The position numbers and the translations under genes were made by a program. Source: Escherichia coli (GTDB lineage: Bacteria; Pseudomonadota; Gammaproteobacteria; Enterobacterales; Enterobacteriaceae). From it: 3,221 nucleotides of DNA. Where the stretch lies: the NCBI RefSeq assembly GCF_003334255.1, contig NZ_QOWU01000126.1, one strand, 5' to 3'. This document shows, piece after piece, positions 838 through 3,001 of the stretch. Each line of letters opens with the position of its first letter. Position 1 is the first letter of the stretch. The notes beneath the pieces were generated by a model, which did no database searches, had not been told where the DNA came from, and was given only the letters and a program-made list of their open reading frames with translations.

Positions 838-2004
838 GTGAAACATCTGCATCGATTCTTTAGCAGTGATGCCTCGGGAGGCATTATTCTTATCATTGCC
901 GCTATCCTGGCGATGATTATGGCCAACAGCGGCGCAACCAGTGGATGGTATCACGACTTTCTGGAGACGCCGGTTCAGCTCCGGGTTGGTTCACTCGAAA
1001 TCAACAAAAACATGCTGTTATGGATAAATGACGCGCTGATGGCGGTATTTTTCCTGTTAGTCGGTCTGGAAGTTAAACGTGAACTGATGCAAGGATCGCT
1101 AGCCAGCTTACGCCAGGCCGCATTTCCAGTTATCGCCGCTATTGGTGGGATGATTGTGCCGGCATTACTCTATCTGGCTTTTAACTATGCCGATCCGATT
1201 ACCCGCGAAGGGTGGGCGATCCCGGCGGCTACTGACATTGCTTTTGCACTTGGTGTACTGGCGCTGTTGGGAAGTCGTGTTCCGTTAGCGCTGAAGATCT
1301 TTTTGATGGCTCTGGCTATTATCGACGATCTTGGGGCCATCATTATCATCGCATTGTTCTACACTAATGACTTATCGATGGCCTCTCTTGGCGTCGCGGC
1401 TGTAGCAATTGCGGTACTCGCGGTATTGAATCTGTGTGGTGCACGCCGCACGGGCGTCTATATTCTTGTTGGCGTGGTGTTGTGGACTGCGGTGTTGAAA
1501 TCGGGGGTTCACGCAACTCTGGCGGGGGTAATTGTCGGCTTCTTTATTCCTTTGAAAGAGAAGCATGGGCGTTCTCCAGCGAAGCGACTGGAGCATGTGT
1601 TGCACCCGTGGGTGGCGTATCTGATTTTGCCGCTGTTTGCATTTGCTAATGCTGGCGTTTCACTGCAAGGCGTCACGCTGGATGGCTTGACCTCCATTCT
1701 GCCATTGGGGATCATCGCTGGCTTGCTGATTGGCAAACCGCTGGGGATTAGTCTGTTCTGCTGGTTGGCGCTGCGTTTGAAACTGGCGCATCTGCCTGAG
1801 GGAACGACTTATCAGCAAATTATGGTGGTGGGGATCCTGTGCGGTATCGGTTTTACTATGTCTATCTTTATTGCCAGCCTGGCCTTTGGTAGCGTAGATC
1901 CAGAACTGATTAACTGGGCGAAACTCGGTATCCTGGTCGGTTCTATCTCTTCGGCGGTAATTGGATACAGCTGGTTACGCGTTCGTTTGCGTCCATCAGT
2001 TTGA
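838..2004 (+). CDS. nhaA: Na+/H+ antiporter NhaA (388 aa, 12-TM secondary transporter), GTG start
   Basis: ORF 838..2004 translates to [41 protein letters not shown]..., which I recognise as E. coli NhaA essentially residue for residue. The protein is highly hydrophobic, and the conserved Asp163-Asp164 pair (IIDDLG, codons GAC GAT at 1324..1329) of the ion-binding site is intact. Stop TGA at 2002..2004. Confidence 0.97.
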
Positions 2005-2018
2005 CAGGACGGTTTACC

Positions 2019-2046
2019 GGGGAGCCATAAACGGCTCCCTTTTCAT
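2019..2046 (+). terminator. Intrinsic-terminator-like hairpin between nhaA and nhaR (probably partial, allowing read-through)
   Basis: GGGAGCC at 2020..2026 pairs perfectly with GGCTCCC at 2033..2039 (7 bp GC-rich stem, 6 nt loop ATAAAC), followed by TTTTCATTGTT from 2040. It starts 15 nt after the nhaA stop and ends before the nhaR SD. The short, interrupted T-tract suggests incomplete termination. Confidence 0.45.
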
Positions 2047-2052
2047 TGTTAT

Positions 2053-2060
2053 CAGGGAGA
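2053..2060 (+). promoter_or_regulatory. Ribosome-binding site of nhaR (AGGGAGA)
   Basis: Strong SD-like AGGGAGAGA ends 3-5 nt before the ATG at 2064. This supports ATG 2064 as the start rather than the TTG at 2046 used by the ORF track. Confidence 0.55.
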
Positions 2061-2063
2061 GAA

Positions 2064-2969
2064 ATGAGCATGTCTCATATCAATTACAACCACTTGTATT
2101 ACTTCTGGCATGTCTATAAAGAAGGTTCCGTGGTTGGCGCAGCGGAGGCGCTTTATTTAACTCCACAAACCATTACCGGACAGATTCGAGCGCTGGAAGA
2201 GCGCCTGCAAGGCAAATTATTTAAACGCAAGGGACGTGGTCTCGAACCCAGCGAGCTGGGAGAACTGGTCTATCGCTATGCCGATAAAATGTTCACCTTA
2301 AGCCAGGAAATGCTGGATATTGTGAACTATCGCAAAGAATCCAATTTATTGTTTGACGTTGGCGTGGCTGATGCACTTTCCAAACGCCTGGTCAGTAGCG
2401 TACTTAACGCCGCAGTGGTAGAAGGCGAGCCCATTCATCTTCGCTGCTTCGAATCCACCCACGAAATGCTGCTGGAGCAATTAAGTCAGCATAAACTGGA
2501 TATGATCATTTCTGACTGTCCGATAGACTCTACGCAGCAGGAAGGCCTGTTCTCCGTGAGAATTGGCGAATGTGGCGTGAGTTTCTGGTGTACAAATCCA
2601 CCACCAGAAAAACCGTTCCCGGCTTGTCTGGAAGAACGGCGACTTTTGATTCCTGGGCGACGTTCAATGTTAGGGCGCAAATTGCTTAACTGGTTTAACT
2701 CCCAGGGATTAAACGTAGAAATCCTCGGCGAGTTTGATGATGCCGCTTTGATGAAAGCTTTTGGTGCGATGCACAATGCAATCTTCGTTGCCCCAACGCT
2801 TTATGCATATGACTTTTATGCCGATAAAACTGTCGTAGAAATTGGTCGCGTCGAGAATGTGATGGAAGAGTACCATGCTATTTTTGCTGAGCGGATGATT
2901 CAGCACCCGGCGGTACAGCGAATCTGCAATACGGATTATTCTGCGCTTTTTAGTCCAGCGGTGCGTTAA
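2064..2969 (+). CDS. nhaR: LysR-type transcriptional activator NhaR (301 aa), Na+-responsive regulator of nhaA
   Basis: From ATG 2064 the frame translates to [53 protein letters not shown]..., which I recognise as E. coli NhaR. It has an N-terminal helix-turn-helix typical of LysR-type regulators and a C-terminal co-inducer domain. Stop TAA at 2967..2969. The ORF track's TTG start at 2046 adds 6 residues and overlaps the upstream hairpin, so I reject it. Confidence 0.96.
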
Positions 2970-2976
2970 TCGGCAG

Positions 2977-3001
2977 CTCCCCCAAAGTTAAGGTGGGGGA
3001 G
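2977..3001. other. GC-rich hairpin immediately downstream of the nhaR stop (no U-tract)
   Basis: CTCCCCCA at 2977..2984 pairs with TGGGGGAG at 2994..3001 (8 bp stem, 9 nt loop). No T-run follows on either strand, so it is not a canonical intrinsic terminator; it could be an RNA stability element or a rho-dependent termination region. Confidence 0.3.

Follow-up and report, generated by a model that had tools for sequence, protein, structure and literature searches.

Leaky terminators between genes of one operon, known as "attenuators", include the rplL–rpoB attenuator, the rpsU–dnaG terminator and the terminator between glnA and glnLG; the REP hairpins between malE and malF are intercistronic hairpins that serve as stabilisers. 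Leaders repressed by CsrA, such as those of glgC, cstA and pgaA, carry several GGA motifs, one of them inside the Shine-Dalgarno (SD) sequence in a CARGGA context, and the geometry preferred by CsrA presents GGA in a hairpin loop. The spacer between nhaA and nhaR of Escherichia coli can be compared with each of these. It resembles canonical E. coli intrinsic terminators in having a G+C-rich stem of 8 bp, a loop of 6 nt (usual ranges, about 5–14 bp and 3–8 nt) and a U-run on the 3' side, and in that the nhaA 3' end falls 5–6 nt after the stem and is insensitive to Rho inhibition; it differs from them in that its U-tract is short and interrupted, in that related genera keep the hairpin without the U-tract, and in that no more than 13 nt separate the hairpin from the nhaR ribosome-binding site. 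A further probable likeness to the leaky attenuators is partial read-through into a regulatory gene downstream, here nhaR, which also has a weak promoter of its own. As with the malE–malF REP hairpins, a stem-loop after the upstream cistron could block 3' exonucleases and skew the product ratio; unlike REP hairpins, that of nhaA–nhaR is single-copy in E. coli. The spacer shares with the CsrA-repressed leaders several GGA motifs, one of which falls within the SD as part of a CARGGA match, but the GGA of its large hairpin is buried by stem pairing. The nhaR leader also lies between two cistrons, where it probably doubles as the terminator of nhaA, and no CLIP-seq peak is listed for it.

The stem-loop is essentially known already, being covered by published datasets, and as first described its value is mostly that of annotation clean-up. 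Our analysis joins three facts that were published separately: the Rho-independent 3' end at MG1655 coordinate 18696, the CsrA-controlled nhaR leader, and the major NhaR start at 18721 rather than 18715; no paper joining them was found in the literature searchable here. Constructs called "nhaR 5' UTR" would include the nhaA terminator as well. A modest comparative lead, which is new, is that a covarying hairpin has been conserved and its U-tract mostly has not, with arms that are SD-like and anti-SD-like; it bears on how the antiporter:regulator ratio might be combined with CsrA control.

Results and Discussion

The spacer contains a stable stem-loop

The window, i.e., the whole 3,221-nt stretch of E. 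coli DNA that was analysed (assembly GCF_003334255.1, contig NZ_QOWU01000126.1), is the mokC/sokC–nhaA–nhaR–IS1A region of E. coli K-12. Window positions equal MG1655 coordinates minus 16651, the offset having been checked on NC_000913.3. Features are collected in Table 1.

Table 1. Positions of nhaA, nhaR and the elements of their spacer within the window.
Feature	Position	Strand	Description	Basis
nhaA CDS	838..2004	+	Na+/H+ antiporter; GTG start, TGA stop 2002-2004	ORF list; RefSeq annotation, identical DNA, MG1655 17489..18655
ACAGGAC	2004..2010	+	First GGA 2007-2009, just after nhaA stop; candidate upstream CsrA contact	Sequence
B2 vs non-B2 substitutions	2012..2018	+	Only three in the spacer: 2012 G>A, 2014 T>G, 2018 C>T	Pairwise alignment
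Hairpin 5' arm	2019..2026	+	GGGGAGCC; contains GGA 2021-2023, SD-like	Sequence, fold, covariation
Hairpin loop	2027..2032	+	AUAAAC, no GGA	Sequence, fold
Hairpin 3' arm	2033..2040	+	GGCUCCCU; CUCCCU 2035-2040 is the exact complement of SD AGGGAG 2054-2059	Sequence, fold
Interrupted U-tract	2040..2050	+	UUUUCAUUGUU, directly 3' of stem	Sequence, terminator scan
Mapped RNA 3' end	2045..2045	+	…GGCUCCCUUUUCA-3'; MG1655 18696	Adams et al. 2021 Term-seq, PMC7815308
In-frame TTG	2046..2048	+	Artefact of open frame	5/78 species; no SD; absent from TetRP list
Shine-Dalgarno	2053..2060	+	CAGGGAGA (GGAG 2056-2059); matches CsrA-type CARGGA	Sequence; 79 aligned leaders
First in-frame ATG	2064..2066	+	MG1655-annotated start (NC_000913.3, 18715); minor or lineage-specific	11/78 species; weak TetRP
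nhaR CDS	2070..2969	+	From conserved major start ATG 2070 (MSHINYN…, 299 aa); TAA 2967-2969	WP_001300855.1 (PGAP)

The spacer up to ATG 2064 runs from 2005 to 2063 (59 nt). The first-pass annotation described within it a perfect 7-bp GC stem; the pairing of GGGAGCC (2020–2026) with GGCTCCC (2033–2039) is indeed perfect, but it is not all G-C, being made of six G-C pairs and one A-T pair, and a G2019·T2040 pair (G·U in the RNA) lengthens the stem to 8 pairs (2019–2026 with 2033–2040). The hairpin core has an energy of −15.5 kcal/mol; the 36-nt hairpin segment folds at −16.1 kcal/mol (z = −4.4) and none of 200 shuffles was equally stable. The hairpin between nhaA and nhaR is real. The DNA after the stem (2040–2050) reads TTTTCATTGTT, which gives a U-tract of four U, CA and then UUGUU, with U at 8 of 11 positions, one of which can pair with G2019; the tract passes a simple terminator scan, yet is weaker than canonical tracts. 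In that scan the spacer hairpin ranked first in the window (8 pairs, 6 of them G-C), although the scan as a whole was without significance (7 sites compared with 3.5 ± 2.4 expected).

A permissive cmscan of the whole window against Rfam (E up to 1) returned nothing in 2005–2066, its sole match being sok at 250–402, and a known RNA family (riboswitch, leader or sRNA) is ruled out as the identity of the hairpin. A REP/BIME repeat was rejected as well, since all of the 5426 E. coli genomes searched have the 71-nt spacer as a single copy (megablast with a word size of 28 nt, at which the 22-nt hairpin by itself is detected less sensitively). The perfect −35 sequence TTGACA at 2001–2006 was rejected as part of a promoter; there is no usable −10 at 16–18 nt and the scan of the window did not report it.

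The stem is conserved across the Enterobacteriaceae and its U-tract mostly is not

We examined if the hairpin is shared by related species. A core stem of −12 kcal/mol or lower was present in 55 of the 62 species' spacers of at least 45 nt, compared with 1.0% of mononucleotide shuffles, so that its conservation exceeds chance. Of 78 species, 56 have retained the hairpin, which in all but one of them ends 19–34 nt before the start codon. The alignments used were an in-register subgroup of 12 sequences and a covariance-model realignment, a global MAFFT alignment of the 79 leaders being out of register. With the sequence-only alignment 99% of cells were paired and double changes occurred at 4 of 8 pairs; covariation was 0.40 compared with 0.19 for shuffles (reached by 0 of 500), and at most 0.18 when the partners were slid. 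With the model-fitted alignment of 61 leaders, double changes occurred at 8 of 8 pairs and covariation was 0.55 compared with 0.14.

The inverted repeat could be a chance palindrome, or a protein-binding site in the DNA with no role in the RNA: terminator-like patterns are common (7 in the window, 3.5 expected), and the minus strand of the palindrome folds as well. The minus strand of the spacer, however, has no T-tract and no gene (one mechanical 42-aa ORF only), the same stem energy arose in only 1% of shuffles, the plus-strand RNA has a 3' end right after the stem (below), and the compensatory double substitutions preserve pairing as the sequence changes, whereas a DNA site bound by a protein would show the reverse. 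Covariation together with the mapped 3' end effectively refutes a chance or DNA-level origin, which we regard as extremely improbable.

Escherichia species retain 4–5 consecutive U after the hairpin. Across the family only 10 of the 56 species with the hairpin have a T-rich tail behind it (5 or more T in 8), 6 of those 10 being Escherichia; the counts come from a strict core-stem finder that allows no bulges. Hairpin and U-tract are therefore not conserved together in relatives (56/78 for the one, 10/56 for the other), though joint conservation does not define a terminator within one species. Given so few T-rich tails, canonical termination is probably not what selection preserves across the family, and the lack of a family-wide U-tract weakens termination as the conserved function. 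A hairpin that shows compensatory changes across the Enterobacteriaceae while mostly lacking a T-rich tail is, as judged from these alignments, a new observation. REP-like hairpins were seen at the same position in Pseudocitrobacter (leaders L058 and L065).

An RNA 3' end lies within the U-tract of E. coli

The first-pass annotation had proposed a weak intrinsic terminator or attenuator, which calls for transcript 3' ends near 2040–2050; such an end has been mapped, and the published data lend the idea support. Term-seq places an RNA 3' end at MG1655 18696, 5 nt after the stem, in two of the three condition sheets, where it is classed as "primary" for nhaA, the nhaR start as annotated being 19 nt further downstream (Adams et al. 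2021, PMC7815308). Reads at this end were low (about 930–1090), and Term-seq does not distinguish terminated ends from processed or exonuclease-trimmed ones. The end has an intrinsic-terminator score of 8.36 (threshold 3), a score that derives from a sequence model and not from an assay, and a Rho score of 0.71 with the significance flag "No" in the bicyclomycin experiment (PMC7815308). The 3' end thus falls inside the U-tract in vivo and is Rho-independent, as is typical of intrinsic terminators. In DirectRNA-seq of cells not treated with bicyclomycin, the 800 nt upstream of the end had 74 reads and the 800 nt downstream had 62 (PMC7815308), a downstream/upstream ratio of 0.84 that is confounded by the promoter inside nhaA and by differences in mRNA stability; with downstream coverage at this level the stop looks leaky.

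Other datasets bear on the transcripts that cross the spacer. A YdeO-activated nhaR promoter is located inside nhaA, and the filtering rule of the Term-seq study implies a transcription start at most 200 bp upstream of the 2045 end. MAPS and RIL-seq handled nhaA–nhaR as a polycistron, and a CyaR pull-down enriched nhaA 160-fold and nhaR only 7-fold. The SMRT-Cappable-seq supplements make no mention of nhaA or nhaR.

We think it probable that the hairpin with its interrupted U-tract is a leaky, Rho-independent terminator that ends nhaA within the nhaAR operon. Polymerases from the nhaA promoters, or from the weaker promoter in the 3' part of nhaA, would in part be released at U2043–A2045, giving an nhaA-only mRNA with a stable hairpin at its 3' end; the others would continue through the hairpin into nhaR. 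The 2045 end would then arise from termination rather than processing, and the terminator may serve to set the nhaA:nhaR ratio. On the read-through RNA the hairpin would become part of the nhaR leader, with 13 nt between it and the ribosome-binding site that follows.

The same end could instead be a processing product. The hairpin would then be mainly a conserved RNA structural element, acting as a barrier to 3'→5' exonucleases and/or marking an endonuclease cut in the AU-rich stretch downstream, with the nhaA segment stabilised relative to nhaR. Its compensatory changes in 56 of 78 species with a T-rich tail in only 10 of 56, and its position 19–34 nt before the start codon in all but one of them, are what such an element would show, and the end would correspond to a cut A↓UUGUU in a single-stranded AU-rich segment, a site that may resemble those preferred by RNase E. 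Adams et al. credit processing for most of the ends that fit neither intrinsic nor Rho-dependent termination, and allow for several mechanisms acting in combination (PMC7815308). On the other side, the E. coli end lies exactly at the intrinsic release point, 5–6 nt into the U-run of a sequence that scores 8.36, and the run of 4–5 U is kept in Escherichia species. We consider a mainly structural role unlikely; it is compatible with the terminator that we favor, the two not being mutually exclusive.

The stem-loop lies in a leader controlled by CsrA

The first-pass annotation mentioned neither that the spacer is the published CsrA-regulated nhaR leader nor that the promoter inside nhaA feeds nhaR. 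CsrA binds the nhaR 5' UTR directly and inhibits translation, the SD of nhaR being overlapped by one of its sites (Pannuri et al. 2012, J Bacteriol 194:79, as described in PMC4052769, PMC7652899, PMC4066749 and PMC5694010). As expected of a CsrA-regulated leader, the spacer has more than one GGA, at 2007–2009, 2021–2023 and 2056–2058, the last of them inside CAGGGAG and overlapping the SD. The sequence TCAGGGAG is at least 90% conserved in the 79 aligned leaders. A GGA upstream of the hairpin occurs in 27 of 56 species, and that at 2007–2009 is a candidate CsrA site by its sequence. The high-affinity geometry, with GGA in the hairpin loop, is absent from the large hairpin of E. coli, where the GGA is in the stem, and only 5 of 56 species have a GGA within the loop or bordering it; loop-presented GGA is, though, not universal among CsrA sites. 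The CLIP-seq study of Potts 2017 lists a CsrA peak inside nhaA (17656–17824) and none in the nhaR leader. Lescat et al. assigned the three B2 substitutions to the CsrA site; by pairwise alignment they sit 5' of the stem, outside the hairpin, and leave the stem, U-tract, SD and both ATGs of the B2-type variant (L002) unaltered.

In sequence, the hairpin arms mimic and complement the nhaR ribosome-binding site, an observation that is also new. The 5' arm GGGGAG could then be both a CsrA contact and an SD mimic, and the 3' arm CUCCCU an anti-SD. With CsrA on the 5' arm the hairpin would fail to form or be opened (anti-termination), and the freed 3' arm would pair with the SD and reinforce repression; without CsrA the hairpin would lock the anti-SD away and leave the SD free. 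That the hairpin responds to CsrA in this manner we consider quite unlikely. Consistent with it are the perfect complementarity of CUCCCU to AGGGAG and the folds computed with the 5' arm blocked: at minimum energy the SD of E. coli then pairs with the 3' arm, as it does in 37 of 54 species, compared with 12 of 54 in which the SD is mostly paired when nothing is blocked. Of 56 species, 43 carry an SD-like purine run in the 5' arm and 1 carries it in the 3' arm. At four stem pairs the 5' base remains G/A in 85–90% of sequences while the other pairs drift freely; the species are related, however, and this orientation bias may be inherited rather than selected. The 5' arm of some clades has no GGA (AGAGAGCC), and 13 of the 56 hairpins lack an SD-like arm altogether.

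The energies argue against a switch as well. The hairpin (−15.5 kcal/mol) would prevail at equilibrium, and the alternative fold, computed with the 5' arm left out (−10.0 kcal/mol), was no stabler than shuffles (z = −0.69), for which reason a switch is kept only as a reading of low probability. CsrA may block the SD directly, which would make an anti-SD unnecessary. The abstract of Pannuri et al. 2012 reportedly finds the nhaR transcript level unaffected by CsrA. The B2 substitutions of Lescat et al. lie 5' of the stem and not in it. Remodelling of a leader by CsrA is documented for pgaA (Figueroa-Bossi et al. 2014, PMC4052769), and only if the nhaR hairpin were a switch would the two be alike: both would have GGA-containing hairpin arms whose opening by CsrA alters termination and ribosome access. 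The pgaA terminator is Rho-dependent and CsrA promotes termination there, whereas for nhaR the prediction would be anti-termination at an intrinsic terminator. Complementary arms, biased orientation and constrained folds are compatible with a dual-purpose CsrA-sensitive switch conserved in the Enterobacteriaceae, in which CsrA on the nascent 5' arm would suppress the nhaA terminator and lead to sequestration of the nhaR ribosome-binding site, but we consider it quite unlikely; if it existed, transcriptional read-through and translational repression would be coupled in one 22-nt element.

Translation of nhaR most likely starts mainly at ATG 2070

The first-pass annotation dismissed the extension of the nhaR frame to TTG 2046 as an artefact, and our comparison agrees with it: the TTG is present in only 5 of 78 species, which rules it out as a genuine start, it is missing in E. 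albertii and in one genome of the E. coli clade, and in Salmonella an in-frame stop follows its position. The annotation's choice of ATG 2064, on the grounds of a strong SD, did not hold up. The AGGGAGA motif exists (at 2054–2060; its position had been given as 2053..2060, one off), but its GGAG lies only 4 nt before ATG 2064. A second in-frame ATG at 2070–2072, which the annotation left unmentioned, lies 10 nt from the GGAG, and 10 nt is the mode of the family-wide spacing between the SD and the conserved start (5–11 nt). A start codon (ATG or GTG) occupies the 2070 position in 78 of 78 species, whereas ATG 2064 is found in only 11 of 78, and PGAP placed the start at 2070 in 5 of 6 annotations sampled. 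Tetracycline ribosome profiling (TetRP) found the major nhaR start at 18721 (window 2070), the annotated site being minor with a weak signal; TetRP compared nearby in-frame NUG codons and did not list TTG 2046. Translation of nhaR most likely starts mainly at ATG 2070, two codons after ATG 2064, with ATG 2064 probably a minor start and TTG 2046 presumably unused. The MG1655 and UniProt-type annotations of NhaR with 301 aa probably carry two surplus N-terminal residues.

Locus and coordinates

The DNA corresponds to mokC/hokC–sokC, nhaA, nhaR and the end of IS1A in E. coli K-12, as identical DNA is annotated in RefSeq genomes. From the nhaA and nhaR coordinates of MG1655, the window coordinate equals the MG1655 coordinate − 16651.

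Coordinates of features in the nhaA–nhaR region
Feature	Window	MG1655	Source
nhaA	838-2004	17489..18655	RefSeq annotation
Hairpin tail, TTTTCATTGTT	2040-2050		
nhaR	end at 2969	18715..19620	MG1655 record
IS1A end	from 3145		RefSeq annotation of identical DNA

A hairpin and an RNA 3' end between nhaA and nhaR

In the best-supported account of the spacer, a leaky Rho-independent terminator would close nhaA, and its hairpin doubles as part of the CsrA-controlled nhaR leader; nhaR would be supplied by read-through and from a promoter within nhaA, with ATG 2070 as its main translation start. Each piece of this account has been published before, in papers or as supplementary data, so the finding is real but ordinary; the comparative results on the hairpin are a modest added lead.

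The spacer features described in the first-pass annotation (stem, tail, TTG, AGGGAGA and ATG 2064) were all present, except that the AGGGAGA lies at 2054-2060, its start having been placed one too low at 2053; a second in-frame ATG, at 2070, had been missed. The arms GGGAGCC (2020-2026) and GGCTCCC (2033-2039) pair perfectly (six G-C, one A-T), G2019·T2040 lengthens the stem to 8 pairs, and the loop is ATAAAC. The folding energy of the 36-nt hairpin segment is −16.1 kcal/mol, a z of −4.4, which none of 200 shuffles equalled. It was the highest-ranked terminator-like site in a pattern scan of the window, the scan itself being not significant overall (7 sites vs 3.5 ± 2.4 expected), and an Rfam search returned no family at the spacer.

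Term-seq, by which termination and processing are not distinguished, places a 3' end at MG1655 18696 (+), window 2045 (Adams et al. 2021, PMC7815308); the weak terminator suggested on first pass called for transcript 3' ends near 2040..2050, and this end supports it. The RNA ending there (…GGCUCCCUUUUCA) stops five nt past the stem. The authors list it as a primary nhaA 3' end that precedes the annotated nhaR start by 19 nt, and it is present in two of their three condition sheets (933 and 1093 reads; PMC7815308). Its intrinsic-terminator score, which comes from a sequence model, is 8.36 (at least 3 being counted as predictive), and its Rho score, 0.71, is flagged not significant (PMC7815308). 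The listed Rho score was recovered from the DirectRNA-seq counts in 800-nt windows around the end, 74 reads upstream and 62 downstream when untreated (PMC7815308), and 314 and 187 with +BCM; a second promoter confounds the untreated RNA level into nhaR, about 0.84 of that upstream. In the main rival account, the hairpin would serve chiefly in RNA stability or processing and the 3' end would be a processing product; this may coexist with a terminator.

A YdeO-activated nhaR promoter has been reported within the nhaA coding region, and a TSS must exist within 200 bp upstream of 18696, because this end passed a Term-seq filter that kept a 3' end after a stop codon only with a dRNA-seq TSS ≤200 bp upstream. 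MAPS and RIL-seq work treats nhaA-nhaR as a polycistron; MS2-CyaR enrichment (nhaA 160-fold, nhaR 7-fold) fits both co-transcription and many transcripts stopping before nhaR. The TTGACA at 2001-2006 (+), a perfect −35 hexamer overlapping the nhaA stop codon, is probably not a promoter: there was no acceptable −10 at 16-18 nt, and the best candidates (CATAAA or ATAAAC) were 19-20 nt away, inside the hairpin loop.

Conservation of the hairpin across Enterobacteriaceae

The nhaR locus was taken from 80 GTDB Enterobacteriaceae species, 78 of them analysable. A strict core stem (−9 kcal/mol or better) was present in the spacer in 56 of the 78 and, with one exception, ended 19-34 nt upstream of the conserved start; where spacers were at least 45 nt, 55/62 reached −12 kcal/mol vs 1.0% of shuffles. 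The hairpin was absent from the Citrobacter freundii complex, Kluyvera and Atlantibacter, whose spacers are short or different. When 12 diverse leaders were aligned on sequence only, the 8-bp stem was 99% paired with four pairs doubly substituted, and covariation was 0.40 vs 0.19 for shuffles (0/500 reached it) and ≤0.18 for slid partners. Realignment of 61 leaders with a covariance model, an alignment biased toward structure, gave double substitutions at all 8 pairs and covariation of 0.55 vs 0.14 for shuffles and ≤0.14 for slid partners. Selection thus acts on the hairpin as an RNA structure rather than as a palindrome in the DNA.

At least five T residues in the 8 nt after the hairpin were found in only 10/56 species, six of the ten being Escherichia, and T-rich tails were lacking in Klebsiella, Enterobacter, Salmonella and others. 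Canonical termination, which fits E. coli, is therefore unlikely as a function conserved across the family.

Could the arms have a sequence-specific role, for example in contacting CsrA and/or switching as an anti-SD? The 5' arm GGGGAG resembles the SD AGGGAG, and the 3' arm CUCCCU (2035-2040) is exactly complementary to the SD (2054-2059). SD-like purine runs occupy the 5' arm in 43/56 species and the 3' arm in one, and four stem pairs stay the same in 85-90% of sequences, the others drifting. When the 5' arm was blocked, the SD paired with the 3' arm in the minimum-energy fold of 37/54 species, including E. coli; unconstrained, the SD was paired in only 12/54 and otherwise mostly free. Together these observations suggest such a role. 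However, the alternative fold was no stabler than shuffles (z = −0.69), the GGA or SD-like arm is missing in some clades, and the sampled species are not independent, so that we give this reading a low probability.

In Pseudocitrobacter (loci L058 and L065), REP-like palindromes (GCCGGATGGC…GCCATCCGGC) occupy the hairpin position upstream of nhaR, and the SD differs (AAGGAGG in L058, GGGAGGAAAC in L065); a different hairpin is recruited to the same site. Two comparison loci carry unexpected labels. CASFSC010000151.1, labelled 'uncultured Alistipes sp.', matches E. coli at 100% identity over its nhaR locus, and the contig almost certainly belongs to E. coli and was mis-binned into a Bacteroidota MAG; another is labelled Chryseobacterium, yet its nhaAR is enterobacterial.

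The nhaR start codon

The start at 2070 (MSHINYN…) is ATG in 76/78 species and GTG in the other two. The in-frame TTG 2046, judged on first pass to be most likely an artefact, is one: it occurs in just 5/78 species, all Escherichia; E. albertii and one genome of the E. coli clade lack it, and Salmonella has an in-frame stop after its position. The first-pass choice of ATG 2064, six nt upstream of 2070, did not hold: this codon is found in 11/78 species (Escherichia, two Salmonella, two Citrobacter), and GGAG lies only 4 nt from it in E. coli but 10 nt from ATG 2070, the spacing to the conserved start being 5-11 nt across species (mode 10, in 31 species; one outlier at 14). Tetracycline-inhibited ribosome profiling also favours 2070, reporting a new nhaR start at 18721 (+6), 'multiple; our data was major', selected for depth at least 10-fold above the annotated codon and with the authors' own caveat of limited resolution between adjacent codons (Nakahigashi et al. 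2016). Five of six sampled PGAP annotations start nhaR at 2070, and the start is at 2064 in one B2 genome and in the MG1655 reference. At best, ATG 2064 serves as a minor start.

The CsrA-controlled leader in E. coli populations

According to papers that cite Pannuri et al. 2012, the nhaR 5' UTR contains sites to which CsrA binds, blocking translation, and the 60-bp spacer has been given as the site of CsrA control (Lescat et al. 2014); CLIP-seq lists no CsrA peak in the nhaR leader. The spacer is single-copy across 5426 complete E. coli genomes, with at least 99% identity in 4337 and 95-99% in 1089; two matches listed in the latter band, at 95.8%, have three differences. By alignment, B2 and non-B2 spacers differ at only three positions (2012, 2014 and 2018), between the first GGA (2007-2009) and the stem foot; stem, U-tract, SD and both ATGs are the same. 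Over 1900-2200 (301 bp), 1047/5426 genomes were only 90-95% identical, in agreement with the published strong nhaAR divergence between phylogroup B2 and other E. coli.

Surrounding sequence

The Rfam sok model (RF01794) matched 250-402 on the − strand (118 bits), which is the mokC/hokC mRNA strand. In Term-seq and its annotation, sokC lies on the + strand (301-356) and ends strongly at 17007 (window 356); the model seems to follow the hok mRNA in orientation, or to cover more sequence than the antisense RNA. Another Term-seq 3' end, MG1655 17501 (window 850, +), lies only 12 nt inside the nhaA ORF, with a read count of 4844 (LB, OD 0.4), about 5x that of the nhaA terminator end, a Rho score of 0.81 and a terminator score of 1.08. 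Lying near the start codon, it could be sRNA- or RNase-related, because the CyaR sRNA strongly pulls down nhaA.

A second strong hairpin (2977-3001, +; CUCCCCC/GGGGGAG, segment −16.6 kcal/mol) lies 8 nt past the nhaR stop, with a loop of 9-11 nt, no T-tract, and the purine/pyrimidine arm order reversed relative to the nhaA hairpin; the Term-seq entries covered list no + strand 3' end past 18696 up to the region end. The IS1A terminal inverted repeat (GGTAATGACTCCAAC…) closes the window, convergent with nhaR; in many non-K-12 genomes rpsT or an unrelated gene, not IS1A, directly follows nhaR. In one of the 5426 complete E. coli genomes, NZ_CP148133.1 (isolate FELIX_MS78, K-12-sized; L003 2501-2700), IS1A abuts window position 2066, nhaR is wholly deleted after the first ATG, and rpsT is next; the junction looks like an IS1-mediated adjacent deletion.
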